A stretch of DNA of 63,106 nucleotides from an archaeon GW2011_AR19 (GCA_000806015.1 JWKY01000007.1:1-63106); one strand, 5' to 3'; positions 17,255 to 48,571 are shown, counted from the stretch's first letter. Numbers and translations: made by a program. The notes: a model not told the origin generated them from the sequence alone.

Positions 17255-17503
17255 TTAATATTCATGTCCAAAAACTATTTTCTCAGGATAAAGTTCTTTT
17301 AAATTTAAATCATAAGAAAAGATCACTCTTAGTTTTCCTATTCTTATCCTGCAACTTCCTTTTAAGTCATAATGAAGATGTTTGTATCTTTCAGGATTCT
17401 CAGAAACTTCTTCAATTTTCTTTTTAATTCTTTTTTGCTCAAAAGCATCTAATTTTTTAAAATCTTTCTCAAATTCTTTTGTAGGAAGAATCTTATAGCT
17501 CAT
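17255..17503 (-). CDS. RelE/ParE-superfamily toxin
   Basis: Contains KEFEKDFKKLDAFEQKRIKKKIEEVSENPERYKHL...CRIRIGKLRVIFSYD. Confidence 0.7.
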   Translation of the reverse strand: MSYKILPTKEFEKDFKKLDAFEQKRIKKKIEEVSENPERYKHLHYDLKGSCRIRIGKLRVIFSYDLNLKELYPEKIVFGHEY

Positions 17504-18661: not shown

Positions 18662-18919
18662 CTAATGTTTATTGAAGAAATATGCGAGTATCACAGAACT
18701 TACCCCAAGAAGAGCAACAACATTTGAGATTATTATTGGATAATTAGAAATAGAGAGACCATAAATTAACCAAATAATAACTCCAACTGCGAAAAAAAGA
18801 TAAGTCATTAGCGAAATATCTTTTGCGCTTTTTCTTTTGAAAATTTTATATGTCTGCGGAAGATACGCAAAACCCATTAATGTTCCAAAAATTGTTGTTA
18901 TTATAGGAAGTATATCCAT
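18662..18919 (-). CDS. SemiSWEET / PQ-loop family transporter (3 TM)
   Basis: 85 aa with three TM segments and the PQ motif FAYLPQTYKIFKRKSAKDIS. Confidence 0.6.
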   Translation of the reverse strand: MDILPIITTIFGTLMGFAYLPQTYKIFKRKSAKDISLMTYLFFAVGVIIWLIYGLSISNYPIIISNVVALLGVSSVILAYFFNKH

Positions 18920-19515: not shown

Positions 19516-19617
19516 TTTTTTCTAAAAAAAGAAGATAACCAAAATCTTTTTAAAGTTCAAAGAGGTAATATAATCAATAACTGTCCCGCATGGTTCGCCA
19601 TATTGGGACTTCTTTTT

Positions 19618-19854: not shown

Positions 19855-20211
19855 ATGACAAACGAAAAAGAAGTTAAAACAATAACAGATAAACAAGAAA
19901 TAAGCAAAATAATTCAAGAAAAAATTAAAGGCAAAAAACTAATTTTTACAAACTATTATTATTTTGGCATTGATAAAAGAGGGATTGCTCATGAGAGAGT
20001 TACTGATATTTTTCCGCAATTTGAAAAAGTAATTGCTATAGAAATAGAAACTTTGAAATTTGGAGATTTAGGTTACGAATTCTTTTACGAAATGGGCAAG
20101 AATATTACTTTTTCTATTGCTACTTGTCTAAAAGACAATAAAATTTTAATAATTCATGCAGTAGAATATAAAAGAAATCTGGAAAAAAGAATCAAAAAAT
20201 TTAAGCGATAA
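19855..20211 (+). CDS. Hypothetical, DUF4258-like putative toxin
   Basis: 118 aa with weak resemblance to the 50394..50723 protein. It is convergent with a DUF2283-like gene. Confidence 0.35.
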   Translation: MTNEKEVKTITDKQEISKIIQEKIKGKKLIFTNYYYFGIDKRGIAHERVTDIFPQFEKVIAIEIETLKFGDLGYEFFYEMGKNITFSIATCLKDNKILIIHAVEYKRNLEKRIKKFKR

Positions 20212-20539
20212 TCAAGGATTGTTTCATTGGGACATTAAAAGGGATTCTTTCTATATTTCCATGTTTTGGTTTTAAGATAAAATAAAGAATATAGCCATCT
20301 TTATATTTTTTAAATATTAATTGAGCGTCTTCTAAATCAGTTAAAGCTATTGAATTTAATCCAAGAGAGGATAAATATTCGGAGATATTTCTAATCTCAA
20401 CATTTACAATTTTGCCATTATTCGCAAAATCAAGAGTTACATTTAAAACTCTCACGCTTCCAACTATTTTTTCATTAATTTTCTTGCATGAAATCATAAA
20501 CCTATCTGAAAATTCATCATAAAAATAATTCTTTTCCAT
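20201..20539 (-). CDS. DUF2283-like protein
   Basis: Has the pattern YFYDEFSDRFMISCK...GKIVNVEIRNISEYL, as in the proteins at 50026 and 56464. Confidence 0.4.
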   Translation of the reverse strand: MEKNYFYDEFSDRFMISCKKINEKIVGSVRVLNVTLDFANNGKIVNVEIRNISEYLSSLGLNSIALTDLEDAQLIFKKYKDGYILYFILKPKHGNIERIPFNVPMKQSLIIA

Positions 20540-20885: not shown

Positions 20886-23800
20886 CTACTTATTAACAGC
20901 TTCAACAATTTCTTTTTTTGCAGTCTTTTTGTCTTCTTCTCTTTTTACTAAAGGACCTATAACTTTAACAAGCAACCCTGGAAATCCTGTTCCAACAGGA
21001 ACCGGCTGATTTAAAATTATATTTTCAATAACGCTTTTTAATTTTTCTTTGCTTCCTTTAACTGTAGCATTTACAAATTGTTTTATTGGAGTTTCAAAAG
21101 TTGCCCTCGCAAGAATCGAAGACTTCTGCGCGATTATTCCCATTCTTGTAACTCCTTTAATCTGCCCGGTATTTGTTATAGCATCTGACGCCAGTTTAAG
21201 ATGATGGTCATCAATATCTAATCCCTGAGTATTAAGAACATATTTTATTTCATTAATAATTAATTGTCTTGCAGCTTCAATTCCAAAAACTTCCGCAATT
21301 TCATAAAAATCATTTGAAATAATTTTATCTTTATTTACTTCTTTCATTTTTATTATTTCTTCAATATTTGTTCCGAGAGTTATAATAACAAAATTATTCT
21401 CTTTTTTTAAAATTAAAATTTGTTTAATGCCCTTTACCCCTGAAATTATCGTATTCTTAAATTTCTCTTTTAACAGATAGATTTCTTTGAAAGAAAGAGC
21501 GTCAGAATTCAATACAATCATCTCGTCTTTTTCTTTTGCTTTAAAATTTAACTCATTTAATCTTTCAACTATCTTTTTTATAGTCACATGAGTTTTTTTT
21601 AAAGCTTCTTTGTCAATTTTTATTTCAATTATTTTTTTGCTGAAATTTATTGCAATTTCTGAAGAAACTTCTTTTAATGTCACTTCTTTTATTTTTTCAG
21701 CAAAGATTTCCGCATCTTTTTCATTATTGTATTCTTTATTTAAATAAATCTCCATTTTTGGAGAGGAAGGTTTTTTTCTCGCATCAAATATTTCTATCAG
21801 CCTTGGCAATCCCATAGTTACCTGCATCTCTGCAACACCTGCAAAATGGAATACATTTAATGCCATTTGTGTTGAAGGCTCTCCAAATGACTGGGCAGTT
21901 ACCAGTCCTAAAGCTTCACCCGGAACAATATTTCCGCCGGTATGCAATTCTGAAACATCTTTATTATCGTCGCCATATTTAAATTCTATTATTCTATTAT
22001 TGCTGTCTCTTACTGTTCCGTCATATTCTGCTCTTAAATCCTGGAAAGCGTTTGCAAGTCTTCTATATAAATAACCAGATTTTGGAGTTCTTAATGCAGT
22101 ATCCATTAAACTATCCCGTCCTGTAATAGAGCCAAAGAAAAATTCATCTGGCCTCAATCCTTTGATAAATGAATTTTTGATAAACCCTCTTGCTTTAGGA
22201 GATAAATCATTTTTCTTAAAAAAAGGAAGAGTTCTCTGAGTAAAACCAATATCAATTCTTTTACCCCACAATGCTTGTTGTCCGACACAGCAAGCCATTT
22301 GAGTAATATTTAAAATATTCCCGCCGCCTCCGGCTTTAATCATGCTATTTACCGGATTTTCTTTCGGGAATTTTTCTTTTACAATAGAACCAATTTTTGT
22401 TCTTACTTCATTTAAAACCTGAAGAATTTTTATTTCTCTGGATTCTTCTGAAGTCTTGCCGGGAATAATTTCAAGACTTTTATTTTCATAAGATTCAATA
22501 ATTTCTTTTGTTCTTTTTTCAGATTTTTTGATAATTTCTTCTGTTTCTTCAATAACACTTTCTTTTAAATCAAAATCTTCAACGCATGCAGTTATTCCAT
22601 GTTGAGTCAAATATGTTTTTCCAAGATTAAATGCTTTGGTAAGCGCATCAAAAGCTTCTTCTCTCCCAAAATCTTTGTCAATTTTTTTAATCAGCGCGCC
22701 ATCTTCAACGCCAAAAGTTGTTTTATCAATAACTCCTTTAATAATTTCTCCGTCTTTTATTTTAATTGAATCATTAGAAAAATCAATTTTTGGAAGAATC
22801 ATTGAAAATAGTTCAGTTCCTGAAATCTTTTTCTTTACAGGCTCAAAATCCAAGCCAGATTGATATAATAATTGGTTTGCATCTTCTTTTGAGAATTCAT
22901 TTAATCCTAAAAGATAATTTCCCGTTATAGAATCCTGCACACATCCGATTAAATTAGTATTATTTTTTGGAGACATCAAATTTTTTTTAACATCAAGCAA
23001 AATTTTTGCTTCTGCGCGCGCTTCTTCTGTTTGCGGACTGTGAATGTTCATTTCATCGCCGTCAAAATCAGCGTTATAAGGAGTGCAGACAGCAGGATGC
23101 ATTCTAAATGTTTTGCCCGGAAGAACTTTTACAAAATGGGCCATTAAACTTCCTCTATGCAGGCTCGGATGTCTGTTGAATAAAACAATATCTCCATCCT
23201 GTAAATGCCTTTCTACAATATATCCCTGAGAAATTTCAGCAATTATTTCTTCTTTTAATTCCTGAGAAATTTTTTTTCTTTTTCCATCCGGCCTCATAAT
23301 ATAATTAGCGCCGGGATAATCTTCTCCTTTTTCAATAAGTTTTATTAATTTTTTTATGTTAAGATCATTAACAGTCTCGGCAACAGTAATAATTTTTGCA
23401 ATTTCATAAGGAATGCCGACTTCATTAATTTTAAGAAAAGGATCAGGAGAAATAACTGTTCTGCCTGCATAATTTACTCTCTTACCGGCGATATTTTTTC
23501 TAATTCTTCCTTCCTTGCCTTTGATTCTTTCTGTAATCGTTTTTAATGGCTGACCGCTTCGGTGTCTTGCTGGAGGAATTTTTGAAACAGTATTATCAAA
23601 AAAAGTTGTGACATGAAACTGCAGCAAATCCCATAAATCTTCAATAATAACCTCGGGAGCGCCCGCATTTAAATTTTCCCACAACCTCTGATTAGCTCTT
23701 ATAATATCTGATAATTTATGCGTTAAATCATCTTCTGAACGTTCGCCGTTTTCTAAAATGATGCTTGGCCTTACAGTTACTGGCGGAACTAATAAAGAAG

Positions 23801-24371
23801 TTAGAATAGCCCATTCAGGTCTGAATGTCCCGCAATTAATTTCAATTTTTTCAAGTTCTTCATCCGGAACATTAACAAGAGTTTCTCTTATTTCTGTCGG
23901 GAAAAGTCTTTTTTTGCCTTTATAAAAAGTTGTTGGTTTGTCTAATTTAACTTTTTCCTGAAGACTCAAGCAGTAAGGGCATTTTTTCTTGTCCCTCGCT
24001 CTTTTTGCTCTTTTACTTGGAGAATATTTTTCCAATTCTTTTTCTTCAAGCATCAACTTGCCGCAACTTTGACAAAAAGCTCTTAAAACTAATTCAACTA
24101 AAGGAATATATTTCAAATGCATTATTGATCTGGCTAAATCAATACTTCCGGAATGTCCAAGACATTCTTTAAGTCTGTCTCCGCAGGTTCTGCATCTTAC
24201 TCCGGGATCAATTGCTCCAAGCCTTAAATCCATTAATCCGCCGTCAACAGGATATCCATCTATATCATAAAGTTCCGGCGTCACAATTTTTGCAACTGAA
24301 AGTTTTTTTATCTCTTCCGGACTAAGTAAAGAAAAACTTATTTCTCCTATTTTTTTTCTTATTGGTTTCAT
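20886..24371 (-). CDS. rpoA: RNA polymerase subunit A, unsplit (A' and A'' parts in one 1161-aa ORF)
   Basis: The N-terminal zinc region reads RCRTCGDRLKECLGHSG and the catalytic site reads NADFDGDEMN. It also has the bridge-helix region ITQMACCVGQQ and the A''-type trigger loop AQSFGEPSTQMALNVFHFAGVAE..GLPRLIEIFDARK. No stop codon occurs between these parts. Confidence 0.9.
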   Translation of the reverse strand: MKPIRKKIGEISFSLLSPEEIKKLSVAKIVTPELYDIDGYPVDGGLMDLRLGAIDPGVRCRTCGDRLKECLGHSGSIDLARSIMHLKYIPLVELVLRAFCQSCGKLMLEEKELEKYSPSKRAKRARDKKKCPYCLSLQEKVKLDKPTTFYKGKKRLFPTEIRETLVNVPDEELEKIEINCGTFRPEWAILTSLLVPPVTVRPSIILENGERSEDDLTHKLSDIIRANQRLWENLNAGAPEVIIEDLWDLLQFHVTTFFDNTVSKIPPARHRSGQPLKTITERIKGKEGRIRKNIAGKRVNYAGRTVISPDPFLKINEVGIPYEIAKIITVAETVNDLNIKKLIKLIEKGEDYPGANYIMRPDGKRKKISQELKEEIIAEISQGYIVERHLQDGDIVLFNRHPSLHRGSLMAHFVKVLPGKTFRMHPAVCTPYNADFDGDEMNIHSPQTEEARAEAKILLDVKKNLMSPKNNTNLIGCVQDSITGNYLLGLNEFSKEDANQLLYQSGLDFEPVKKKISGTELFSMILPKIDFSNDSIKIKDGEIIKGVIDKTTFGVEDGALIKKIDKDFGREEAFDALTKAFNLGKTYLTQHGITACVEDFDLKESVIEETEEIIKKSEKRTKEIIESYENKSLEIIPGKTSEESREIKILQVLNEVRTKIGSIVKEKFPKENPVNSMIKAGGGGNILNITQMACCVGQQALWGKRIDIGFTQRTLPFFKKNDLSPKARGFIKNSFIKGLRPDEFFFGSITGRDSLMDTALRTPKSGYLYRRLANAFQDLRAEYDGTVRDSNNRIIEFKYGDDNKDVSELHTGGNIVPGEALGLVTAQSFGEPSTQMALNVFHFAGVAEMQVTMGLPRLIEIFDARKKPSSPKMEIYLNKEYNNEKDAEIFAEKIKEVTLKEVSSEIAINFSKKIIEIKIDKEALKKTHVTIKKIVERLNELNFKAKEKDEMIVLNSDALSFKEIYLLKEKFKNTIISGVKGIKQILILKKENNFVIITLGTNIEEIIKMKEVNKDKIISNDFYEIAEVFGIEAARQLIINEIKYVLNTQGLDIDDHHLKLASDAITNTGQIKGVTRMGIIAQKSSILARATFETPIKQFVNATVKGSKEKLKSVIENIILNQPVPVGTGFPGLLVKVIGPLVKREEDKKTAKKEIVEAVNK

Positions 24372-24386
24372 GGGTATTTTTTAAAT

Positions 24387-24638
24387 TTATTTTATTGCCT
24401 CTTTCAATCTTTTTTCTAAAAAATTAATAGTTCCTTTATTATATCCGCCAATGTAAATACATCTACTTTTTGGACTTGATTTAATTATCGCTCCAGAAAA
24501 TTTATATTGAGAAAGACCACGAGAGGTAGTTTGATAAGTTGATGTTCCTGCGAATAACCATGCATCTGCTCTATTAAATAATTCTTCTGATTTTAATTTA
24601 ATTCTGTAATAAATTCTTTTTTCTATATTTTTTGTCAT
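24387..24638 (-). CDS. Small unknown protein (83 aa), second gene of a two-gene cassette between rpoB and rpoA
   Basis: ORF lying 2 nt after the upstream partner. Its C-terminal YIGGYNKGTINFLEKRLKEAIK is paralogous to the partner's KIEGYSKENMEFIQKTLESLV. Confidence 0.5.
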   Translation of the reverse strand: MTKNIEKRIYYRIKLKSEELFNRADAWLFAGTSTYQTTSRGLSQYKFSGAIIKSSPKSRCIYIGGYNKGTINFLEKRLKEAIK

Positions 24639-24640
24639 TT

Positions 24641-24922
24641 TTATTCTATGTCTCCTTCGCTTAAAATAATTGCACGTCTTTTTTCTGAATTTACAAGCGA
24701 TTCAAGAGTTTTTTGGATAAATTCCATATTCTCTTTGCTGTATCCTTCAATCTTAAATTTTTTTAAATCACTATAAGCAGTAATTTTTTCACTATATATC
24801 TTAAAAGTTAAATTTCCACCTACATTTTTTTCTTTTCCGTTTGTTTCTTTAACATAAGTTCCTAACCAATGAAGTCCATCATCATATTGCCTATCTGTTT
24901 TAGCTCTAATTGTTTCCATCAT
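24641..24922 (-). CDS. Small unknown protein (93 aa), first gene of the cassette between rpoB and rpoA
   Basis: ORF co-directional with the RNAP genes. Confidence 0.5.
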   Translation of the reverse strand: MMETIRAKTDRQYDDGLHWLGTYVKETNGKEKNVGGNLTFKIYSEKITAYSDLKKFKIEGYSKENMEFIQKTLESLVNSEKRRAIILSEGDIE

Positions 24923-24974
24923 TTTATTTTTTATCTTAGTTTTTTGTTCCTTTTTTTTCTAAAAAAGAAACCCA

Positions 24975-27900
24975 TTATTCATATTTATTTTTTAATTTAA
25001 AAGTTGTGTTTATGTGCATTCCCTTTAATTCTTCGACGAGAAGTTTAAAAGCATATGAAATTTCAATAATTTCAACATCTTCACTTTCACATTTTGGACA
25101 CATTATTTTTCCTCTTATCTTATCGTCTATTGCTGTTGAACCGCATCTAACGCAAATTGGAAGAATTATTTTATCTGAATCATATCTTTCTTTTAATAAT
25201 AATGAAGACCCATGAGCAATCAATGCCTGTTGTTCCATTTCACCAAGTCTTAATGCGCCGCCGCGAGACCTTCCTTCAATTGGCTGTCTTGTTAATAATG
25301 CAATTTTACCCAAAGCTCTTCCGTGCATTTTATTGCTAACCATATATTTTAATTTTAAATAATATAAATTTCCTAAAAATATTTTTGACACCATTTTTTT
25401 CCCGGTAATTCCATTGTACATTGTTTCTTTCCCATCAAATCTAAATCCTAATTCTTCTAATTGATCTTCTAATTCTTTTTTGTCTGACCCAAAAAAAGAA
25501 GTCCCGTCTATAATTTTTCCTTTTAATGAACCAACTTTGCCGGCCAATAATTCAAGTAAATATCCTACAGTCATACGGCTTGGTAATCCATGAGGGTTAA
25601 AAATTATATCCGGCTTATTTCCTTTTGAAGTAAAAGGCATATCTTCTTCAGGAACAATTAATCCAATAACTCCTTTTTGTCCATGCGATGTTGCAAATTT
25701 GTCGCCTAATTCAGGAATACGCTGGTCGCGGGTTTTAACCTGAATAACTTTATTTCCTTCATTATCTTTTGTTATAAAAACAGCGTCAACAATTCCTTTT
25801 TCTTCCTGCCTCATTGTTACGCTGGATTCTTTTTTTGTTCTTATTGAAATATCTCTTGCTTCTGATAAAAATTTAGGAGGAGAAACTTTTCCAATCAAAA
25901 TTTCTCCTTCATTTATTTCTGCTTCAGGATAAACAAGACCATCGCTTTCCAAATAACGATATAATTTTTCCATTCTATATCCTGAAGTATCTTTTTCAGG
26001 AATGGCAATTTCATCTTTTAGCCCGCCGGCATAATTCATTTCAATAGCAGAATATGGTCTGAAGTAAAAGCTTCGTCCAACTCCTCTGTCCACTCCGCCT
26101 TTATTCAGCACAAGAGCGTCTTCCATATTATACCCTTCATAAGTCATAATACCGACGATTAAATTTTGTCCTGCAGGATAAATGTCAAGAGCATCATAAA
26201 CAAAACTCCTGACAATTGGTTTTTGAGGATATTGTAAAATTGAAACATCTGTATCTAATCTGCATAAATAATTAGCAGAATACAAACCTAAAGCCTGTTT
26301 TTGCGTCTTGCTCCCGCGATTTAAACGAGAGCTTTGATTATGATTTCCGTATGGAACTAAACTTGTAATTGCGCCAAATAAAGAAATAGGGTCAATTTCA
26401 AGATGAGTATGTTCTGGAGTTAATTCTTCTTCAAATAATGAAACAAGCGCATTTTCTTCTTCAGACGCGTCAATATATTCAATTAATCCTTTTTCAATTA
26501 AATCTTCCCAATTCAAATTTCCTTGCTGTATTTGAATTAAGTGATTGTTGTTTATTCTTGGAATTCCATTATCAACGATAATTAAAGGTCTTAATACTCT
26601 TCCGGCTTCACTTGAAAATCTAATTGTTTCAAATCCATGATCATTTCTTATACTAATTTGCTCCGGCAATCCTCCTTCACGTCTTTTTTCTCTTAATCTT
26701 TTTGCAAATTCGTCGTTATCTTTTACAGTTCCAATAAACCTTCCATTTAAAACAACGTCTTTTCCTTCAATTGCTTCTTTATCTAATCCTTCTTCTTCTA
26801 AAACTTTAATTATTTCTTCTTCATTCATTTTTGTTCTTGTAGAAACTTTGCTTAATATTGCCAAATTTTTTCTTAAACCAATTTCAGTTCCTTCAGGAGT
26901 TTCAATTGGACAGAATCTTCCATAATGCGTCGGGTGAAGTGTTCTTGCTTTGAAATTTTCCTGATCAGACGGAAGCATACTTGAAATTCTCTGCAACTGA
27001 GAAATTGTTGCTAAATAATTTGTTTTATCCATGTTTTGTGTTATTCCGGATCTCTCGCCAGTCCATGCCCCCGTTGCAATAGCAGATTCAACTCTATGAG
27101 AAAACAGCGTCGATTTTGCTAAAACTTTTATTGAAAAATAATTTTTCCTTTTTACTGATTTTTGAAGAGAATATTTAATATCTCTTATTAAAATTCCTAA
27201 ATTTACTTTGAATAAAGTTGCTAAAAGATCTCCTGAAAGTCTGACTCGCTTGTTTGCATAATGGTCTTTGTCTGTTTTTAATTCCGGGTTGTCTTTTGCA
27301 ATTAAATAATGTTTTATTAATTTGCATAAAGTAATTGCTTTTTTTGTTCTATCTTCTTTTTTCTGCCCGATATGCGGAAAAAGATATGAATCAATTCTTG
27401 ATTTTACTCTTTCAACAATTTCTTTTTTTGTTCCCTGTAAATTTGTCTTTTCAGCAATATACATTATCGCATCTTCTTTTGTAACAATATTGACAAATTC
27501 ATAAAGATTGACAATAACGCTGTCATTTTCTTTTCCAATATATTTTGCAATATCTGATTCTTTTGTTAATCCAAGAGATTTTAATAAAACAATTGCAGGT
27601 AAATCTTTGAATCTGCTGAATGAAAGATTAAACAATCCATCTTTTCCCTCGTTGAGAGTTATTGGAATTCTGTAAGTTCCTCTCAAAGAAAACATTTTCA
27701 GGACTAATACCCCGTTTTTTCCGTACTCTATAAAAAATTGGTTTTCAGCCAAGTCTTCTGCCATAATCATGACTCTTTCATTTCCTTTAATTATAAAATA
27801 CCCGCCGGGATCTTTGGGATCATTATAATTTGCTATTAATTCTTCACGGGACATTCCATGAGTATTGCATGCTTTGCTTTTTACCATAATCGGAATTTTT

Positions 27901-28232
27901 CCAATTTCTACAATTTCAGAATCAGTTTGCCCATCTTTTTTAATAGTTAATTCAATATTAATTGGGGCAGCATAAGTCAAGTCTCTTAATCTTGCTTCAC
28001 TTGGAGTGATAAAAGAAGAACTTCCGTCTGCTTCAATAATTTTTGGTTTTCCAACTTCTATTTTTCCAAGAATTATTTCAAAATCTTCATTGTCCATTGA
28101 ATCATTTATTTCATTGACAATTTCCTGCATTCTATATTCAATAAAATCATTAAATGAAATAACATTTGATTCTACAAGAGAGTGAGTTTTTAGATAATTT
28201 TTAACAATGATGTGCTCGTTTTTTATTTCCAT
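24975..28232 (-). CDS. rpoB: RNA polymerase subunit B (unsplit)
   Basis: Full-length Rpo2 with ..HGQKGV.., GEMEQQALIAHG and a C-terminal zinc ribbon CVRCG...CPKC. The start is set at ATG 28232..28230 (MEIKNEHII), which is preceded by GGAGG; the ORF track extends 16 codons upstream into a duplicated leader. Confidence 0.93.
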   Translation of the reverse strand: MEIKNEHIIVKNYLKTHSLVESNVISFNDFIEYRMQEIVNEINDSMDNEDFEIILGKIEVGKPKIIEADGSSSFITPSEARLRDLTYAAPINIELTIKKDGQTDSEIVEIGKIPIMVKSKACNTHGMSREELIANYNDPKDPGGYFIIKGNERVMIMAEDLAENQFFIEYGKNGVLVLKMFSLRGTYRIPITLNEGKDGLFNLSFSRFKDLPAIVLLKSLGLTKESDIAKYIGKENDSVIVNLYEFVNIVTKEDAIMYIAEKTNLQGTKKEIVERVKSRIDSYLFPHIGQKKEDRTKKAITLCKLIKHYLIAKDNPELKTDKDHYANKRVRLSGDLLATLFKVNLGILIRDIKYSLQKSVKRKNYFSIKVLAKSTLFSHRVESAIATGAWTGERSGITQNMDKTNYLATISQLQRISSMLPSDQENFKARTLHPTHYGRFCPIETPEGTEIGLRKNLAILSKVSTRTKMNEEEIIKVLEEEGLDKEAIEGKDVVLNGRFIGTVKDNDEFAKRLREKRREGGLPEQISIRNDHGFETIRFSSEAGRVLRPLIIVDNGIPRINNNHLIQIQQGNLNWEDLIEKGLIEYIDASEEENALVSLFEEELTPEHTHLEIDPISLFGAITSLVPYGNHNQSSRLNRGSKTQKQALGLYSANYLCRLDTDVSILQYPQKPIVRSFVYDALDIYPAGQNLIVGIMTYEGYNMEDALVLNKGGVDRGVGRSFYFRPYSAIEMNYAGGLKDEIAIPEKDTSGYRMEKLYRYLESDGLVYPEAEINEGEILIGKVSPPKFLSEARDISIRTKKESSVTMRQEEKGIVDAVFITKDNEGNKVIQVKTRDQRIPELGDKFATSHGQKGVIGLIVPEEDMPFTSKGNKPDIIFNPHGLPSRMTVGYLLELLAGKVGSLKGKIIDGTSFFGSDKKELEDQLEELGFRFDGKETMYNGITGKKMVSKIFLGNLYYLKLKYMVSNKMHGRALGKIALLTRQPIEGRSRGGALRLGEMEQQALIAHGSSLLLKERYDSDKIILPICVRCGSTAIDDKIRGKIMCPKCESEDVEIIEISYAFKLLVEELKGMHINTTFKLKNKYE

Positions 28233-28304: not shown

Positions 28305-28517
28305 TTATATTACAGCCCTAAAATAAATATTTACTTTATTATTTTCAGGTTCTTCTCTTTCTATCTTAATAATGTCCCCGATTTTACAACCGGAAGGTAA
28401 AGCAGGATCAGTTAAAAATATCTTTGGCAATTGAGCCTTTGAAACATTAAATTTAGTAAGAAGTTCATTTGCTTCTTTTTCATTCAGTTTTATGTGTTTT
28501 GGCTGTAGAATATACAT
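28305..28517 (-). CDS. rpoH: RNA polymerase subunit H (Rpb5-like)
   Basis: 70 aa with PKHIKLNEKEANELLTKFNVSKAQLPKI...DPA....KIGDIIKIER. It sits directly upstream of rpoB. Confidence 0.85.
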   Translation of the reverse strand: MYILQPKHIKLNEKEANELLTKFNVSKAQLPKIFLTDPALPSGCKIGDIIKIEREEPENNKVNIYFRAVI

Positions 28518-28813: not shown

Positions 28814-28930
28814 GGCTCCGTAGCTCAGTTTGGTAGAGCACCGGACTTTTATGCGAAAACAAGTTTTCACGTGCTTCGTGAAAATCACAAAGCAATCCGG
28901 GTGTCGCGGGTTCAAATCCCGTCGGGGCCA
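28814..28930 (+). tRNA. tRNA-Lys (anticodon TTT) with a 43-nt intron at position 37/38 (about 28852..28894)
   Basis: The hand fold gives acceptor GGCTCCG/CGGGGCC, D arm GCTC-AGTTTGGTA-GAGC and anticodon stem CCGGA/TCCGG. The anticodon loop is CT-TTT-A[intron]A and the T arm is GCGGG-TTCAAAT-CCCGT. Confidence 0.85.
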
Positions 28931-30977: not shown

Positions 30978-31274
30978 TCAGTTAATCTGAAAAAATCCTT
31001 CTTTAAATTTTTCTTTAATTTCTTCTTTTGAAAAAGGATGTAAAACTTTTGCAAGATCTTTTTTCCATCTTCCAACTCTTGTTATGTTTTTCCCTTCAAT
31101 TAAATAAGCTGAATGGATTTCGTATTTTCTATCAAATCTGCTAAAATATGAAGTTGTAACATATTCAGCATCACCATTGGCAGGTTCTATTAAATAGATA
31201 GTTTCCACATATCCGAAATTATTTTTCGTTTTTTCACCTCGTCTTATTTTAGCCGGCCAAATCATTTCCGCCAT
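30978..31274 (-). CDS. Small unknown protein (98 aa), gene 9 of the small-gene operon
   Basis: ORF lying 1 nt after the upstream gene. Confidence 0.45.
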   Translation of the reverse strand: MAEMIWPAKIRRGEKTKNNFGYVETIYLIEPANGDAEYVTTSYFSRFDRKYEIHSAYLIEGKNITRVGRWKKDLAKVLHPFSKEEIKEKFKEGFFQIN

Positions 31275-31275
31275 T

Positions 31276-31524
31276 TTAATTATCCTTGCTCATTTCATTT
31301 AATCCTAAATGATGCCTTTTAGGAAAACGTATGTCTTCAAAACTTCTGTGTAAAAGCTTTAAATTTTTGTCGTTAAAATAAATATATGTTCTGTGTTCTG
31401 TCAGTTCATTTTGCATTTCTTTCTTTGCGTCAAAATAAGCAAATTCCGAAAAATTCCTCACATTATAAATAATTCCTTCAAATTCATTTCCCGTTTCTAT
31501 ATTGCCTAAATTTTCATTTGTCAT
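31276..31524 (-). CDS. Small unknown protein (82 aa), gene 8
   Basis: ORF that starts with aaaATGACAAA, as do several neighbours. Confidence 0.45.
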   Translation of the reverse strand: MTNENLGNIETGNEFEGIIYNVRNFSEFAYFDAKKEMQNELTEHRTYIYFNDKNLKLLHRSFEDIRFPKRHHLGLNEMSKDN

Positions 31525-31525
31525 T

Positions 31526-31750
31526 TTAATTTCCCCTTATTTTTTCAGCGTCAATAAAATCATAATCTGTCAATTCTTTGTTTATTACTTTATCTGTTTT
31601 ACGCTCGTATTTTATCAAATAATTTTCCTTATATGCAATCTTAACGCTATCTCCATCGTCAAACTTTTCCCATAATTTTTTATATTTATCTTCTTCTCCA
31701 ATAATAGGAAATTTGTTTCCGTGTTCGCATCTAAAAACAATTCCCCACAT
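31526..31750 (-). CDS. Small unknown protein (74 aa), gene 7; may be the C-terminal part of a frameshifted lipoprotein
   Basis: Protein-like ORF (MWGIVFRCEHGNKFPIIGEEDKYKKLWEKF..) that overlaps 31615..31884 by 136 nt in another frame. Confidence 0.45.
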   Translation of the reverse strand: MWGIVFRCEHGNKFPIIGEEDKYKKLWEKFDDGDSVKIAYKENYLIKYERKTDKVINKELTDYDFIDAEKIRGN

Positions 31751-31884
31751 TTCAGGGAAGGTTGTTGAATTAACTGAAATCGCAATATCTCCTCCTCATT
31801 TTTTGTATATTCTGAACATCCATTTAACATAATGCTTACTGCGGGAATCATTACAAGTTTTGTTAAATTTTTTAATGTTTTCAT
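31615..31884 (-). CDS. Putative lipoprotein precursor (lipobox LNGC); its 3' half is of doubtful coding quality
   Basis: The signal/lipobox reads MKTLKNLTKLVMIPAVSIMLNGCS. The start overlaps the upstream gene by ATGA. Confidence 0.4.
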   Translation of the reverse strand: MKTLKNLTKLVMIPAVSIMLNGCSEYTKNEEEILRFQLIQQPSLKCGELFLDANTETNFLLLEKKINIKNYGKSLTMEIALRLHIRKII

Positions 31885-32138
31885 TTTTTATTTTTATTAG
31901 TTTGATTATAAATTTCTTTTGCAGCCAAATATGCCCCAAAAGAAGAAACTTTAGATACAAATGGCAAGTTTTTGTAGATTTCCATTCTGTCTTTAGCGAT
32001 TTCATTTTTATATTCTTCTTTTAAATTTTTCAGAAAATTATTTTCTTGGCTATATGAAGAATAATTAAAAGCTCCAAAATATCCCCCGCATATTATAAGT
32101 CCCCCGATTATAACCTTTAAAAGATTTTTTTGATTCAT
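31881..32138 (-). CDS. Small membrane-anchored protein (85 aa), gene 5
   Basis: Has an N-terminal TM segment LLKVIIGGLIICGGYFGAF. Confidence 0.45.
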   Translation of the reverse strand: MNQKNLLKVIIGGLIICGGYFGAFNYSSYSQENNFLKNLKEEYKNEIAKDRMEIYKNLPFVSKVSSFGAYLAAKEIYNQTNKNKK

Positions 32139-32139
32139 C

Positions 32140-32394
32140 TTAATCCTCTGTCAAAATCTTTTCCAAGTTTTTTAAAGTTGAGCTTTTTCTTTCGCCAAGA
32201 GATTCTGAAACTGCTTTGTCAGTTAAGTAATTTTGGTAAGCTAAGGTAAGCTTATTATAAAGCTCCATTTTTTCTTGAATTTTTTTCTTTTTGTCATCGG
32301 TTAATTTATTAAATTCTTCCTGAGGCATTTTAGGGATTATTTCTCCAATATAAAGATCTTTTAGCTCTCCCTTGACTTTTTTGCTTCCGCCCAT
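32140..32394 (-). CDS. Small charged helical protein (84 aa), gene 4
   Basis: ORF. Confidence 0.45.
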   Translation of the reverse strand: MGGSKKVKGELKDLYIGEIIPKMPQEEFNKLTDDKKKKIQEKMELYNKLTLAYQNYLTDKAVSESLGERKSSTLKNLEKILTED

Positions 32395-32417
32395 TAATTC
32401 TGAGTATAAGTCGCTGA

Positions 32418-32666
32418 CTAATCTCTAAATAAATCATTTTCCTCGCCAGATTCTAAATCATAATTTTTCAAGCCCGAATTAAATGAAGGCAGATATTTAA
32501 ATTTCTCAACAGCAGAACCTCCTGCCTCGCCATAACCTCCGGACTCTTCAACTAAAAAAGCGCTTGCTAAATTCATTAAGTTCCCAGCTTTCAAATTCTT
32601 CAAAGCAATTTTTCTTATTCTTTCTTTTGCTTCTTCAATTTCTTGCGGTGTTGGTTGGTTTGTCAT
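32418..32666 (-). CDS. Small unknown protein (82 aa), gene 3
   Basis: ORF whose start overlaps the upstream gene by 4 nt. Confidence 0.45.
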   Translation of the reverse strand: MTNQPTPQEIEEAKERIRKIALKNLKAGNLMNLASAFLVEESGGYGEAGGSAVEKFKYLPSFNSGLKNYDLESGEENDLFRD

Positions 32667-33019
32667 TTTGTTTTTGAATTTATTTTATTTAAGTAATTAG
32701 TATATTTCTTTTGGTATCTCTTAATCTCTTTTTTATCTCCTTCAGATCTGGAATAAGCATGTGCTTCGTTTGCTTTACAAACCCCATTAATAGGACGGGA
32801 ATAAACATAAACACCATCTATAGAATCTTTATTATGATATGAACTATAAATAAAAACAGAATCGTTGGTTATTACTTTAAGCGGGTCTGCTAAAGAAAGA
32901 TTATATTTTACAATTTCTCCATCAAGATTATACTTTTTATAGCCATCAAACAAAATCACACTTCCAGCTAAAGATAAACCCAATCCAATTCCAAGTAGTT
33001 TACTAATTAAATTTGTCAT
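32663..33019 (-). CDS. Membrane-anchored unknown protein (118 aa), gene 2
   Basis: Has an N-terminal TM segment LLGIGLGLSLAGSVILF. Confidence 0.45.
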   Translation of the reverse strand: MTNLISKLLGIGLGLSLAGSVILFDGYKKYNLDGEIVKYNLSLADPLKVITNDSVFIYSSYHNKDSIDGVYVYSRPINGVCKANEAHAYSRSEGDKKEIKRYQKKYTNYLNKINSKTK

Positions 33020-33020
33020 T

Positions 33021-33524
33021 TTATTTCTGCTCTCCTTCTAATTTATCTTCCAAATTTCTTTTTTTAAAAGCGTTTTTAATTAATTTTGGAACATTCTTTA
33101 ATCCGTAAATCTGAATAAAAGGGAAATAATTATCCCCGAGTTCATTATATAATCCTGCCTGCAATACAAAAGCGTCTTTGTTTTCTTCTTTTATAATATT
33201 TGCAAGGGTCCCATATTGAAATAAAAAATCTTTAACACCTTTAGAATAATTAAAAACTCCTGCAATATTTGCTCCCTTTGAATCCCCGTCAATTTTATTT
33301 ACAAGTCCTGCAATATTTGTTCCCTTTGAATCTCCTTTAATTAAATTTACCCATGCAATATTTGCTCCCTTTGAATCCCCATCAATTTCATTTTCAAATA
33401 AGGTAATATTTGCTCCCTTTGAATCTCCTTCAACATTTTTATACAGCAAATTAAAATCAGCTCCGCTAAAAGTTTTATATTTTGACCAAATAAATGGAAT
33501 TTTTAGGTATTTTTGTTCTGTCAT
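33021..33524 (-). CDS. Repeat protein (167 aa) with four tandem 15-16-aa GDSKGANIA repeats, gene 1
   Basis: The repeats read EGDSKGANITLFENEID / GDSKGANIAWVNLIK / GDSKGTNIAGLVNKID / GDSKGANIAGVFNYSK. Confidence 0.5.
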   Translation of the reverse strand: MTEQKYLKIPFIWSKYKTFSGADFNLLYKNVEGDSKGANITLFENEIDGDSKGANIAWVNLIKGDSKGTNIAGLVNKIDGDSKGANIAGVFNYSKGVKDFLFQYGTLANIIKEENKDAFVLQAGLYNELGDNYFPFIQIYGLKNVPKLIKNAFKKRNLEDKLEGEQK

Positions 33525-33681: not shown

Positions 33682-34062
33682 TTGATGAAAAAAGATTACA
33701 ATGCAGAAATAAAAGAATTAACTGCGAAATTATCCAAGAATAGTTCAATTCTTGCGATTTATCTTTTTGGAAGTTATCCTGAAAATTTTCGCCCAATGTC
33801 GGATATAGATATTTGCGTTATTGGGCAATTAAATAAAATTCAAAAAAAGAAGATTTTAAGGGATTTTTCAGAGAAATTTGATATTTCGTTTTTTGATGAA
33901 CTGCCAATTACAATAAAAATCAAGGTTTTCAGCGAAGGAAAAGAACTTTTTTCCAAAGATAAAGAAAAATTGCATGAGCTTAAATGGAAAACTTTTTATC
34001 AATACAGAGAAATTGCTCCATTCATACAACAAAGAATAGATTCTATGCTTCAAAATGCTTAA
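33682..34062 (+). CDS. Minimal nucleotidyltransferase (MNT) antitoxin
   Basis: Contains LAIYLFGSYPENFRPMSDIDICVIG and overlaps the HEPN gene by 8 nt. Confidence 0.75.
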   Translation: MMKKDYNAEIKELTAKLSKNSSILAIYLFGSYPENFRPMSDIDICVIGQLNKIQKKKILRDFSEKFDISFFDELPITIKIKVFSEGKELFSKDKEKLHELKWKTFYQYREIAPFIQQRIDSMLQNA

Positions 34063-34468
34063 CAAAGAAAGATTAAATTTTATTGTTGAAGATGTAAACA
34101 TTTATTTTGAAAAGTTAAGAAAAATTTCTCCGACAAAAGAAAATTTGAATAATGATGAAAAATTTCTATCAACTTCTATGGCAATTTTTCAAATTCTAAA
34201 TAGAATGATTGATTTAGCAGACGAAATAGTTAAAATTGAGAAGATTGGCTATCCTCTTCAAATAAAAGATTTATTTACCTTTTTAAAAGAAAAAAACATT
34301 ATTGACAAAAAACTTGAAAGAAAGCTAAAAGATTTAGTAATTTCAAGAAATAAATTTTCTCACAGATACGGAAATATAAACAAAGAAGAAATTTTATTAA
34401 TATTAAAAGAATTAGATTCTGTAAAGAATTTTATTAAAGTTATTCTCGCGCATTTAAATAAAAAATAG
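34055..34468 (+). CDS. HEPN (DUF86-type) toxin
   Basis: Has the R-x4-H motif ISRNKFSHRYG. Confidence 0.7.
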   Translation: MLNKERLNFIVEDVNIYFEKLRKISPTKENLNNDEKFLSTSMAIFQILNRMIDLADEIVKIEKIGYPLQIKDLFTFLKEKNIIDKKLERKLKDLVISRNKFSHRYGNINKEEILLILKELDSVKNFIKVILAHLNKK

Positions 34469-34516: not shown

Positions 34517-34765
34517 TTAATTATAAATATTCTTTCTATGTCCGATTCTAATTACAATAATTTTATTCATAGAAACAACGACATCTACAATAGCCCGATA
34601 GTCCATAATTCTTAATCTCCATAATTTCTCGCCTTGTAATCTTTTAAGATATCTGAATGGATTTTCTCTAACTGAATAAATTTTTTTTAAAATAATTTCA
34701 GCATCATCTTTTTGCAATTTTTTAAGAAAAGTTTTTGCTATTTCAGTAATCTCTATCTGAAACAT
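34517..34765 (-). CDS. RelE/ParE-superfamily toxin
   Basis: Contains ..RENPFRYLKRLQGEKLWRLRIMDYRAIVDV...IIVIRIGHRKNIY. Confidence 0.7.
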   Translation of the reverse strand: MFQIEITEIAKTFLKKLQKDDAEIILKKIYSVRENPFRYLKRLQGEKLWRLRIMDYRAIVDVVVSMNKIIVIRIGHRKNIYN

Positions 34766-34766
34766 T

Positions 34767-35003
34767 TTATTTTAAAGTTATCCCTAACTCTTTTGCAACT
34801 TGTTCAATAGGTTTTATTTTCCCCATTTTAACATCTTCTAAACCTTTTTTTATTTCTTCGATTTCATCATCGCTTAAATTCTCCTCTTCGCAATTATCTA
34901 TTATTGTATTCAGTACTTCATCATAAGATTGTCTTTCAAAATTTTTAAGAGCTTTTAGTCTATTTAATGTTTCAAGATTGATTTGTATTGTTGTTTTTTC
35001 CAT
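34767..35003 (-). CDS. Putative antitoxin
   Basis: 78 aa, lying 1 nt upstream of the RelE-like gene. Confidence 0.5.
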   Translation of the reverse strand: MEKTTIQINLETLNRLKALKNFERQSYDEVLNTIIDNCEEENLSDDEIEEIKKGLEDVKMGKIKPIEQVAKELGITLK

Positions 35004-35221: not shown

Positions 35222-35752
35222 TTATGCTAAAAATTTATAATCAACTCTTGTCCTGCAAGGCAATTTTGGTTTAAGTTGTTTTATTATTTTTCTTGTAAAG
35301 ATTACTGCTTTTTCATTTGGAACAGCAATAAAAAAAATCCTGTCTCCGGGTTTAACAACCGCGGCTTTGCCAATAGACTTGCCAAAAGATAATTGCATTC
35401 CTGTCTGCATTCTATCTGCTCCAGCTCCTGTAATCATTTTATTTTCTCTCTGAATCTGGTGCGGATAAGGAATAATTTTAAAATAAAATTGACCGGGAAA
35501 TTTCTCCTCCAATTCTTTATGAAGATGCCGCCTGCAGGCTTCAATAGCATTATGTCTTATCTGAACTTTTTCGCAGGAAACCAGCGTTAAATGATGTTTT
35601 AATTTAGAAAGATTATTATTCCCCATCGTGAATTTTGTAATGCTCTGCGGCGGAATTGTTTTAATATATGCCTTATTTTTTATACTGCTATTTCTAGTGA
35701 AGGGAGTAACGTTCTTTTTTGAATACGAATTTGCTTTTCTTAAGGTCGCCAT
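35222..35752 (-). CDS. rpl10e: Ribosomal protein L10e (uL16)
   Basis: Contains ..IRHNAIEACRRHLHKELE......IPYPHQIQRENKMITGAGADRMQTGM...GK..G.AA.V.PG..I. Confidence 0.85.
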   Translation of the reverse strand: MATLRKANSYSKKNVTPFTRNSSIKNKAYIKTIPPQSITKFTMGNNNLSKLKHHLTLVSCEKVQIRHNAIEACRRHLHKELEEKFPGQFYFKIIPYPHQIQRENKMITGAGADRMQTGMQLSFGKSIGKAAVVKPGDRIFFIAVPNEKAVIFTRKIIKQLKPKLPCRTRVDYKFLA

Positions 35753-35815: not shown

Positions 35816-36079
35816 TTATTCTGTTGCCATTTCCATTAATTTATTTTTTATTTCTTTGCTTATTGAGTTTGGAATAATCATTTTATCAATATAAACATTT
35901 TTTTGTGAAGAAGTAAAATATCCTCTTGCTGATTTAAGCGAAATTCCCGATGAATAATATTTTTTTACAACTCTTAAATTTCTTCCTTCTATTTGATGGG
36001 TGCCGTATAAACCAGATAAATAATTCTCAATGAAACTTAAATTTCCAGGTTCTACATTAATTAAAATTTTATTTTTCAT
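35816..36079 (-). CDS. Small unknown protein (87 aa), second gene of a two-gene cassette between L35Ae and L10e
   Basis: ORF lying 2 nt after its partner. Size, order and C-terminal helix pattern parallel 24387..24638. Confidence 0.5.
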   Translation of the reverse strand: MKNKILINVEPGNLSFIENYLSGLYGTHQIEGRNLRVVKKYYSSGISLKSARGYFTSSQKNVYIDKMIIPNSISKEIKNKLMEMATE

Positions 36080-36081
36080 TT

Positions 36082-36354
36082 TTAGTATATTTTTTTAGAA
36101 TTTTCTAAAAGACTTTGTTCTAGTTCTTTTAAAAAATTTTTATTTTTTTCTTTAACTTCAGACGAAGGGTATTTGAAAATTAACTTTCCAGATTCTAAAT
36201 CAACATAAACTTCCTTCTTGTCGCTGGAAGAGGCTTTATAGTTTTTTTCCCCGATACATTCTAACCCCGAATAATCATTCCCCATCAGCATTTTACTAAT
36301 TATTGCCAAATATCCGCTTCTCGGAGTAAAATTTAACAAAGCATGATTATTCAT
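36082..36354 (-). CDS. Small unknown protein (90 aa), first gene of the cassette
   Basis: ORF whose start overlaps the L35Ae stop by ATGA. Its C-terminal NKNFLKELEQSLLENS resembles NMEFIQKTLESLVNS of 24641..24922. Confidence 0.5.
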   Translation of the reverse strand: MNNHALLNFTPRSGYLAIISKMLMGNDYSGLECIGEKNYKASSSDKKEVYVDLESGKLIFKYPSSEVKEKNKNFLKELEQSLLENSKKIY

Positions 36355-36617
36355 TTTTCTTTCACCTCAACTTTTGTTGTAATTGCCTGTCCCGGCAAAC
36401 CTTTTTCAAATATCGCCCTTACAATTCCTTTATTTCCATGGGCGCCTGAAATTTTTCCAGTAATTTCTTTTCCAGCGGGAGATTTCCAGACAACTTTTTT
36501 CCCAACAAATTTTTCAGCCTGCTCCCGGTTTTCAGAATCCGGAATTTCAATTAAGAAATGCCTCTCGTGAATAACTCGCCTGCTCCGCCTAAATTGAATA
36601 ACTTTCCCAATTGTCAT
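36351..36617 (-). CDS. rpl35ae: Ribosomal protein L35Ae (eL33)
   Basis: Contains ..FRRSRR......LIEIPDSENREQAEKFVGKKVVWKSPAGKEITGKISGAHGNKGIVRAIFEKGLPGQA. Confidence 0.75.
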   Translation of the reverse strand: MTIGKVIQFRRSRRVIHERHFLIEIPDSENREQAEKFVGKKVVWKSPAGKEITGKISGAHGNKGIVRAIFEKGLPGQAITTKVEVKEK

Positions 36618-46306: not shown

Positions 46307-46861
46307 TTACTTATAAAGATTACTGATTGGAAAATCTCTGCTAAACTCTTCAGAGATCATCTTCCCCAAATTCTTTCTTCCTCTTAAATACGAGCTCCTA
46401 AGAGTAACCTCAGGTATATTTAATTCCCGACTTGCTTGTTTATAAGAAACTTTATTTTTTAAGAGACGTAATTTTATTATTTCTTTTTGAGATTGCGGGA
46501 GTTTTTCTATTGAATTATTTAAAAAATTTTGCACCAATTTTCTATCAAAATATTTGTCTTGGCTGATAAAGGTGTTTTGCTCCAGATAATTGAGAGAATC
46601 ATCACTTTCAGAAATTAATTTATTTTTCAAAGGATTTCTTTTTTCTTTTCGCGTATGGTCAATAGCTGTATTTTTAACTATTTCCTGAACCCATCCATAA
46701 AATGATTTTCCTTTTCTTTCATCATATTTTTCAAGATTACGAAAAACTTTAATTAGAGAGTCCTGAATCACATCTTCCCTATCTTCTTTGTTTGGAAGAT
46801 AATTATATATCTCGCTCAACAGAGAATTTCTCTTAATTGATTCAAATTTTTTTAATGCCAT
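46307..46861 (-). CDS. ECF-type sigma-70-family protein (regions 2 and 4)
   Basis: The region 2 pattern is EDVIQDSLIKVFRNLEKYDERKGKSFYGWVQEIVKNTAIDHTRKEKR. The region 4 HTH is LPQSQKEIIKLRLLKNKVSYKQASRELNIPEVTLRSSYLRGRKNL. Confidence 0.7.
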   Translation of the reverse strand: MALKKFESIKRNSLLSEIYNYLPNKEDREDVIQDSLIKVFRNLEKYDERKGKSFYGWVQEIVKNTAIDHTRKEKRNPLKNKLISESDDSLNYLEQNTFISQDKYFDRKLVQNFLNNSIEKLPQSQKEIIKLRLLKNKVSYKQASRELNIPEVTLRSSYLRGRKNLGKMISEEFSRDFPISNLYK

Positions 46862-48080: not shown

Positions 48081-48290
48081 ATGAAGATTATGGAATCGGT
48101 AAATTTGACGGATATTTATAAGAAACTAAAAGAAATAGAAAGAAATATGGCAACAAAAAGAGAGTTAGCTCAAACTATGGAAACTTTTTGTATCCTATCT
48201 AATGAAGATACTTTGCATCAAATCGAATCCAGCGAAGAAGATATTAAAAGAGGAAAATTCAAACAAATAAGTTCTGTTGAAGATTTATAA
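48081..48290 (+). CDS. Putative antitoxin (69 aa)
   Basis: Uses the internal ATG of ORF 47829..48290 (MKIMESVNLTDIYKKLKEIERNM..). Its stop overlaps the RelE start (TAATG). Confidence 0.5.
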   Translation: MKIMESVNLTDIYKKLKEIERNMATKRELAQTMETFCILSNEDTLHQIESSEEDIKRGKFKQISSVEDL

Positions 48291-48571
48291 TGGAGTGGAA
48301 AGTTATATCAACTGAAACTTTTTCTAAACAATTCAAAAAACATAAAAAAGATGGAGAGTTTGTAAAAATCCTCAATAACAAAATCAAAAGATTAAAAGAA
48401 AATCCAGAAAATGTTGGAGGTTATTTATCTGGAAAATTGCATGGTTATAAATCCACCAGAATTTTAAGGAAATTAAGACTTGTTTTTAAAATATTAATGG
48501 AAAAACAAGAAGTTCATTTAATGGCTATTGACCATAGAAAGTTTGATTATGAGAGATTTGATTTTGATTAA
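48290..48571 (+). CDS. RelE/ParE-superfamily toxin
   Basis: Contains ..FSKQFKKHKKDGEFVKILNNKIKRLKENPENVGGYL...RKLRLVFKI..EKQEVHLMAIDHRK. Confidence 0.7.
   Translation: MEWKVISTETFSKQFKKHKKDGEFVKILNNKIKRLKENPENVGGYLSGKLHGYKSTRILRKLRLVFKILMEKQEVHLMAIDHRKFDYERFDFD

Follow-up and report, generated by a model that had tools for sequence, protein, structure and literature searches.

Among the closest described counterparts of the proteins considered here are the monopartite TATA-binding protein (TBP)-domain proteins of Thermococcales and the halobacterial TbpA, stand-alone proteins of ~82–136 aa with one β-α-β4-α domain; their function is unknown, and TbpA is non-essential where tested (Brindefalk et al. 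2013, PMC3597702). We analysed a 63,106-nt stretch of DNA from the archaeon GW2011_AR19 (GCA_000806015.1 JWKY01000007.1:1-63106; hereafter the window), in which two small genes, A1 and A2, lie between rpoB and rpoA, and a second pair, B1 and B2, lies within a ribosomal protein operon. A1, A2 and B2 resemble the monopartite TBP proteins in their predicted stand-alone, single-domain β-α-β4-α form. Whereas the latter can be recognised with the Pfam TBP profile, or with Phyre2 at >90% confidence, and are not reported as tandem pairs or in an RNA polymerase (RNAP) operon (PMC3597702), none of A1, A2, B1 and B2 gives a TBP signal at E = 10, and A1 and A2 form a tandem pair inside such an operon.

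Few gene orders in Archaea are as conserved as rpoH-rpoB-rpoA. The A family occurs almost only in this operon, where it is coupled stop to start, which makes it an obvious candidate for a clade-specific polymerase accessory factor in DPANN archaea, a group whose transcription has, to our knowledge, never been studied biochemically. Rpo8 and Rpo13 of Crenarchaeota are small lineage-specific RNAP subunits that are stable in the purified enzyme. A1 and A2 are likewise small, confined to a single archaeal lineage and putatively linked to RNAP, but differ in fold; an association with the enzyme is suggested by where the genes lie, and their presence and type differ from strain to strain. In type II toxin-antitoxin (TA) cassettes, too, two small genes follow each other closely in the same direction, and the downstream product is basic. 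Unlike these, A1 and A2 are paralogous, each is found alone elsewhere, neither matches a known family and their site is fixed.

Our best explanation, to which we give a probability of roughly 0.45, is that A1 and A2 belong to an orphan family with a TBP-like fold that is made with RNAP, acts as a non-essential accessory modulator and turns over rapidly at the rpoB-rpoA junction. The family would have arisen within one narrow clade of groundwater Nanoarchaeota (Woese- or Pacearchaeota-like DPANN), its genes being inserted with the TAA-A-ATG arrangement that joins rpoB to rpoA in relatives. With the genes slotted into this stop-start arrangement, the proteins would therefore be made from the RNAP transcript, roughly in step with the two large subunits. 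The locus would change by tandem duplication, deletion and allele replacement, the last probably aided by extremely conserved flanks and short A/T-rich repeats, and no single family member would be essential. The proteins probably act as small homo- or heterodimers, here of the acidic-to-neutral A1 with the basic A2, which may pack much as the two TBP-like domains do in TBP and would bind nucleic acid or the polymerase.

The A genes at the rpoB-rpoA junction

The window is archaeal, with a G+C content of 29.8%, and the relevant genes are all on the minus strand. Its host is an uncultured, AT-rich DPANN archaeon, a groundwater nano-archaeon; the nearest genomes are metagenome-assembled genomes (MAGs) labelled Nanoarchaeota, Woesearchaeota or Pacearchaeota, and the window sequence was found again in groundwater and soil metagenomes. 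The polymerase operon contains the following features.

28305..28517, minus strand: rpoH (Rpo5), first gene of the operon, a 70-aa open reading frame (ORF); the identical protein carries Pfam RNA_pol_Rpb5_C in related contigs
24975..28232, minus strand: rpoB (Rpo2), unsplit, 1085 aa from ATG, 1101 aa in a TTG-extended version
24923..24974, minus strand: spacer between rpoB and A1, 52 nt, A/T-rich, containing one copy of a 14-nt repeat
24641..24922, minus strand: A1, 93 aa, isoelectric point (pI) 6.6 (near-neutral), A1 type of the orphan A family
24387..24638, minus strand: A2, 83 aa, pI 10.1 (basic), A2 type of the A family
20886..24371, minus strand: rpoA (Rpo1), A′ and A″ joined as a single ORF of 1161 aa, with Rpb1 domains 1–5 in related gene calls

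The initial annotation, made from the sequence alone, had placed two co-directional ORFs of 93 and 83 aa, 2 nt apart, between rpoB and rpoA, and our analysis confirms this arrangement. The rpoB stop and the A1 start are 52 nt apart (the corresponding spacer in strain L098 is 9 nt), A1 and A2 are separated by TAA-AA-ATG, and 15 nt lie between the end of A2 and the rpoA start at 24371. Because 22 of the 66 same-strand neighbour pairs in the window are ≤5 nt apart, the 2-nt spacing is not special in itself. Near-identical contigs call rpoB as a 1085-aa gene with Rpb2 domains 1–7. The termini of both large subunits are normal and align end to end with those of relatives, which rules out A1 and A2 as split-off ends of RpoB or RpoA. 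A′ and A″ are separate genes in many archaea, and L30e is frequently located after rpoA; that A1 or A2 might be a displaced L30e was ruled out, as neither has a Pfam match. Between rpoA and the nusA-like gene we saw no L30e, the interval holding instead a DUF2283-like ORF (20201-20539) and an ORF on the opposite strand.

We used the RpoB C-terminus to fetch 80 loci, referred to below by L numbers, and measured the gap between rpoB and rpoA. The statement that this junction is normally tight is borne out: 24 of 34 other archaeal junctions measured ≤22 nt, seven 35–107 nt, and three (L014, L016 and L031) ≥126 nt. The A family was present at the junction in eight of nine distinct contexts, as follows.

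Window: A1 and A2
L001: A2
L006: A2 and a 17-codon remnant of a second A2
L010: A1 and a protein termed 'C' (119 aa)
L093: A2, A2′ and a 113-aa helical 'C' protein
L097: A1 (108 aa, bearing the C-terminal tail of 'C')
L098-100: a divergent A1 (80 aa)
L101: A2 and an unrelated 77-aa ORF

Orthologues of A1 thus occupy the junction in L010, L097 and L098, and those of A2 in L001, L006, L093 and L101. At least one A-family gene is found there in all clade members with a readable junction. The RpoB C-terminus of carriers is ≥81% identical to that of the window, while in relatives at 65–73% RpoB identity the junction is mostly tight and none has an A-family gene. The tight-junction relatives pass from rpoB to rpoA directly by TAA-A-ATG, and the same stop-start occurs from rpoB to the A genes, between junction genes and from the last gene to rpoA. 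This arrangement of the inserted genes suggests that they are co-transcribed and translationally coupled with the polymerase genes. We did not find such genes described in the literature on DPANN, RNAP-operon and TBP-like small proteins.

The 'C' protein is a helical, junction-specific orphan of 113–119 aa, which two relatives encode immediately before rpoA. In L097 the A1-type protein bears, as a fusion, the conserved C-terminal tail of 'C' (...TQYGNEMEDF...) (protein or tail at L010:4185-4544, L093:605-946 and L097:1113-1439).

Other archaea also carry inserts at this position. In an Aenigmatarchaeota MAG (L031:3924-4496), 571 nt have been inserted independently, including an unrelated ORF of 148 aa, and short unrelated ORFs of 62 and 42 aa occupy the junctions of L014 and L016. 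The rpoB-rpoA junction may be a recurrent landing site.

Paralogy and predicted fold of the A proteins

Close homologues of A2 are 69–77% identical to it. We searched 1.84 billion representative proteins exhaustively by HMMER with a joint A1 and A2 profile and obtained seven genuine clusters, three of the A2 type (P0004, P0009 and P0010) and four of the A1 type (P0011, P0012, P0013 and P0016); two further matches were repeat-protein false positives. The ratio of nonsynonymous to synonymous substitution rates (dN/dS) in the family is 0.30–0.72 and lies below 1 in 20 of 20 pairwise comparisons, saturated-dS pairs included, against 0.08–0.13 for the adjacent rpoB C-terminus. The A-family genes are under purifying but relaxed selection. 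Because they have orthologues in other assemblies, a dN/dS below 1 and confident fold predictions, A1 and A2 are real genes.

Profile comparison identifies A1 and A2 as paralogs, as had been proposed by eye. The pairwise signal is weak (Smith-Waterman z = 3.9, reached in 5 of 1000 shuffles) and goes undetected by blastp. With hhalign, P was 0.0044 for our first profiles and 8.9e-5, over 66 columns covering the whole domain, for families of five and six members. Hidden Markov models (HMMs) of each type also retrieve the opposite type among their first sub-threshold matches. The best-conserved segment runs from strand 5 into helix 2 (...IEGYSKENMEFIQKTLE / ...IGGYNKGTINFLEKRLK), the similarity spotted in the initial annotation, and the motifs W-L, T-Y, G, I-N-F-L/I and L are conserved in both types.

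No known family was recognised at the outset, and none emerged. Pfam, NCBIfam, PADLOC and PHROGs gave no significant match for A1, A2, B1, B2, the 'C' protein or the 77-aa ORF, the PADLOC match of A2 to AbiEi being weak (E 0.0013, 17 bits). PDB-sequence profile searches with the A and B alignments found none. Local HMM searches of all ORFs in the window revealed no additional A or B paralogs, and IMG/VR viral contigs held no A or B relatives. The A family is a very small, clade-restricted orphan family of single-domain proteins of ~80–95 aa. Its A2-type members are strongly basic (pI 9.3–10.2), whereas the A1-type members have a pI of 4.6–6.6 when accompanied by another junction gene and 8.9–9.4 when alone, a charge pattern that fits a need for one basic surface. 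The A genes have a G+C content of 25–27%, compared with 30–37% in their flanks.

An AlphaFold2 model of A2, built on a five-sequence alignment, had a mean predicted local distance difference test score (pLDDT) of 86.3 and a predicted template modelling score of 0.72. Its predicted order is β1-α1-β2-β3-β4-β5-α2, with strands at residues 9–14, 34–37, 43–47, 50–55 and 60–65 and helices at 18–31 and 68–82. The AlphaFold2 model of B2 (pLDDT 85.5) has the same order, with strands at 4–9, 29–31, 37–41, 47–53 and 62–70 and helices at 14–25 and 75–86. For A1, alignment to A2 points to the same fold. The order β-α-β4-α defines the TBP-like fold in SCOP, and the models of A2 and B2 both display it in a domain of ~80–90 aa.

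In structural comparison with Foldseek, the matches of A2 and B2 are enriched in members of the TBP-like fold, at query-normalised TM-scores (TMq) of 0.43–0.61, but none is significant (best E 0.018). The matches of lowest E are the C-terminal domain of an archaeal phosphohexomutase for A2 (1wqa, E 0.018) and a phosphopentomutase for B2 (9ix8, E 0.036). Domain 4 of the phosphogluco-, phosphomanno- and phosphopentomutases has a TBP-like fold, but it is a phosphate-binding lid within a 450-aa enzyme; at 12–15% identity and TMq 0.43–0.51, nothing suggests a common function. Weak PDB matches of A2 also include the OGG1 N-domain and the N-terminal domain of RNase H3 (3vn5; TMq 0.55, root-mean-square deviation 3.3 Å over 68 columns). 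The latter is described in PMC4132731 as one TBP-like domain whose sheet contacts nucleic acid for binding. Unlike A2, it is fused to a catalytic domain, and the match is not significant (E 0.42) and lacks sequence similarity.

TBP of M. jannaschii (2z8u) gave the highest TMq, 0.59, among the 50 PDB matches listed for A2, and giant-virus TBP-like proteins recur in the viral library BFVD at TMq 0.57–0.61. The secondary-structure order in each TBP domain is the same, and A1 plus A2 have the size of one TBP. In TBP, however, two domains stand in tandem, whereas A1 and A2 are separate genes without sequence similarity to it; the Foldseek E is 0.65, and one of the two halves is dispensable. No TBP is among the 50 PDB matches listed for B2. 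The models thus support a TBP-like topology for A2 and B2, while sequence comparison does not support membership of the A or B proteins in the TBP family proper.

An RpoL/Rpb11-like or Rpb7-like fold was considered and rejected: RNAP small-subunit chains are absent from the 50 PDB matches listed for A2, where the RNAP chains are plastid-polymerase C and D only (TMq 0.31–0.38). A β-β-β-α module, with Pcc1 of KEOPS as a speculative possibility, had been suggested initially. Pcc1 (3enc_A) ranks 17th for A2 (E 0.31, TMq 0.51, root-mean-square deviation 6.8 Å), is absent from the 50 matches listed for B2, and gave no Pfam match. Because the models begin β-α and Pcc1 is one weak match among many, this suggestion is not supported.

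Strain-level turnover and competing explanations

Loci L098-100 match the window at 97.5–99.5% identity through rpoB to its stop, and do so once more from position 24425 onwards through rpoA. Over the RpoB C-terminus the proteins are 100% identical and the synonymous divergence (dS) is 0.02. Between the two matching stretches, the 550 nt of the window that hold A1 and most of A2 are exchanged for ~240 nt with a single A1-type gene of ~66% DNA identity (dN 0.52, dS 1.4), and the last ~34 nt of A2 persist as an untranslated remnant. This replacement and the A2 remnant indicate that A2 is dispensable and that the locus exchanges alleles. Single metagenomic runs contain both alleles, at contig depths of ~7–8 versus 3–4. 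Of the contigs encoding identical RpoH, six have the 93+83-aa form and one the 80-aa form. Even the operon that is most conserved in a reduced genome can therefore harbour a locus where genes turn over rapidly, being duplicated, deleted or exchanged as alleles among near-identical strains.

A near-palindromic 14-mer, TTTTTTCTAAAAAA, has three copies in the window where 0.17 are expected, and two of them bracket A1-A2.

24953..24966: copy 1, directly after the rpoB stop
24410..24423: copy 2, within the 3′ end of A2, where homology to L098 resumes
19516-19529: third copy, intergenic, upstream of the nusA-like gene

The repeat may serve as a signal for termination or recombination, or as a promoter element.

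These observations bear on two earlier suggestions. Absence of the ORFs from close relatives with otherwise identical operons had been expected to favour a selfish cassette over a core function. Such absence was found for A2 in L098-100; it speaks against a core role, yet on its own is no proof of selfishness. The idea of a lineage-specific factor associated with RNAP survives in part: eight of nine contexts lie at the junction with stop-start coupling, but the genes are dispensable, vary in copy number and type, and do not encode a core subunit. We rejected a core RNAP subunit, the genes being absent at ≤73% RpoB identity and A2 deleted where flanks are 97.5–99.5% identical.

Several results weigh against an accessory modulator of RNAP with a TBP-like fold. 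The first 850 aa of RpoA contain no clade-specific insertion that might serve as a docking site, only a five-column deletion. An A1-type member, P0011 (L094-96), lies outside the RNAP operon, adjoining a U32 peptidase gene and then a small membrane-protein gene, and L010 has an acidic A1 without a basic A partner. Three tiny SOLiD metatranscriptome runs contained none of the sampled words. On the structural side, Foldseek against the PDB gave no match for A2 or B2 at E ≤ 0.001, and fold-match TM-scores of 0.5–0.6 are borderline; none of the four proteins shows a sequence signal to TBP or any other family in Pfam or NCBIfam at E ≤ 10, nor do PDB-sequence profiles. Finally, weakly selected hitch-hikers, too, would be expected to show high dN/dS, low G+C and deletion from a near-identical strain.

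The main rival, which we consider unlikely, holds that the A genes are hitch-hikers in the operon with a function unrelated to transcription, for instance in virus or host interaction under diversifying selection. The site would be kept for its strong expression, and the ultra-conserved rpoB and rpoA flanks would let strains exchange alleles by homologous recombination. Allele replacement and deletion between strains with near-identical flanks, and the coexistence of alleles in one sample, are what this predicts, and the variable junction content with unrelated ORFs ('C' and the 77-aa ORF), the dN/dS of 0.3–0.7 beside 0.08–0.13 for rpoB, the family member near a membrane-protein gene and a genome rich in small orphan genes all agree with it. 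Yet PADLOC, PHROGs and viral contigs yielded no match, other equally expressed junctions in the window lack A-family genes, and the presence of an A-family gene in every sampled clade member with a junction insert is more persistent than expected of a neutral passenger. Were there no link to transcription, the locus would be an uncomplicated natural case of orphan genes carried along as hitch-hikers within an essential operon. That the A genes are simply weakly selected or decaying ORFs, born of local duplication in an A/T-rich spacer and tolerated by rpoB-rpoA coupling, strikes us as improbable. Their narrow distribution, high dN/dS and low G+C, the deletions and remnants, and the unrelated 42–62-aa ORFs at the junctions of L014 and L016 would all be accounted for. 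A dN/dS below 1 in every comparison, a confident fold prediction from just five sequences, motifs conserved across both types and the retention of at least one copy in all sampled clade members speak against it.

The predicted topology raises the further idea, in our view quite improbable, that A1 and A2, and perhaps B1 and B2, are extremely diverged half-genes of a split TBP-like protein, whose single domains would join into a saddle that binds promoter DNA. The A pair would be made with RNAP and act on RNAP or promoter DNA, the B pair being made with ribosomal proteins. Each protein would be one β-α-β4-α domain of ~85–90 aa, a pair totals 176–177 aa, which matches the size of archaeal TBP, the A genes lie inside the RNAP operon, and the basic A2-type pI is suggestive of DNA (TATA-box) binding. 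TBP has the top TMq among the 50 PDB matches listed for A2, viral TBP-like proteins recur, and Thermococcales and Halobacteria possess TBP proteins of one domain (PMC3597702). Against this stand the lack of any Pfam TBP signal at E = 10 or of any signal to PDB TBP chains, the Foldseek E of 0.65 for TBP and its absence from the 50 matches listed for B2, and the deletion of A2 in a near-identical strain; moreover, the fold is common to many domains that do not bind DNA (PGM domain 4, KA1, Bet v 1). If this explanation were true, the pairs would represent, in present-day organisms, the dimerising single-domain stage through which TBP has been proposed to originate, with duplication and divergence still under way. 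Under the preferred accessory-factor explanation, a TBP-like fold and dimerisation, if true, would amount to a new tandem-gene form of single-domain TBP-like proteins, with a bearing on the origin of the two-repeat TBP. A selfish, TA-like cassette, the remaining suggestion of the initial annotation, is hardly credible. An acidic A1 antitoxin and a basic A2 toxin would fit two small co-directional genes 2 nt apart, the upstream product near-neutral and the downstream one basic, in a window with many TA pairs (HicAB, RelE/ParE, MNT/HEPN), and A2 has its weak PADLOC match to AbiEi. But A1 and A2 are paralogs with one predicted fold, and the partners are not co-inherited, A2 occurring without A1 in L001, L006 and L101 and A1 without A2 in L010, L097 and L098. 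Pfam, NCBIfam and PADLOC hold no significant toxin, antitoxin or defence match. The N-terminus of AbiEi is a winged helix, incompatible with the modelled fold of A2. The family is also fixed at one chromosomal site, with almost no mobility to others, and is not found on viral contigs.

Cassette B and other features of the window

The second cassette described in the initial annotation, two ORFs of 90 and 87 aa with a 2-nt spacer in a ribosomal protein operon (35816..36354), is present as described. Its two genes form a pair of their own, flanked by L35Ae and L10e, and B2 is predicted to share the topology of A2.

36351..36617, minus strand: L35Ae, overlapping B1 by 4 nt; Pfam Ribosomal_L35Ae in near-identical contigs
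36082..36354, minus strand: B1, a 90-aa orphan, first gene of cassette B
35816..36079, minus strand: B2, an 87-aa orphan, 2 nt after B1
35222..35752, minus strand: L10e/uL16, 63 nt after B2; Pfam Ribosomal_L16

Cassette B is real and stable between strains. The order L35Ae-B1-B2-L10e is kept in the L010 MAG (L091), and the cassette is unchanged in seven of eight near-identical contigs, which include samples from the study holding the variant A allele; in the eighth, L109, a 73-aa gene replaces B2. A metagenome scan for B recovered the window's own sequence only. B2 has three homologues, at 55–95% identity. Similarity between B1 and B2 is marginal (z = 3.3, 8 of 1000 shuffles; hhalign 0.16), and the two have the N-terminal motif M-x-N-x-x-L-x-N-x-x-P...G-x-L in common. 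Profile comparison detected no sequence similarity between the A and B families, and cassettes A and B are linked by architecture and by the predicted topology of A2 and B2 only. Similarity among the four proteins is therefore supported for A1 and A2, marginal for B1 and B2, and limited to predicted topology between A and B, which does not establish them as one family.

Another foreign small gene within a conserved information-processing cluster encodes an 85-aa membrane protein of the PQ-loop/SemiSWEET type (18662-18919, minus strand), between the nusA-like gene and that for ribosomal protein S12. The contig that bears the archaeal RNA polymerase genes also encodes a 184-aa protein like bacterial-type sigma-70/ECF factors (46307-46861, minus strand; Pfam Sigma70_r2 E 1.5e-15, Sigma70_r4_2 5e-7). 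Downstream of it, a 617-aa ORF (44435-46288) has a nucleotidyltransferase as its sole match. Two tRNA genes, at 28814-28930 and 51882-52009 (both plus strand; 117 and 128 nt), probably contain introns; they were found by Rfam and missed by ARAGORN.

TA-like pairs are dense in the window and interleaved with housekeeping genes. They include HicB/HicA-like, several RelE/ParE-like and MNT/HEPN (HepT-like) pairs, at the following positions.

887-1318
1997-2450
17255-17503
33685-34468
34517-35003
48290-48571

Between a cstA-like gene and TA modules lie eight tightly packed orphan small ORFs of 82–167 aa (30978-33524, minus strand), one of which (33021-33524) has an internal 'GDSKGANI' repeat. A related MAG carries a different gene set at the position of this array.

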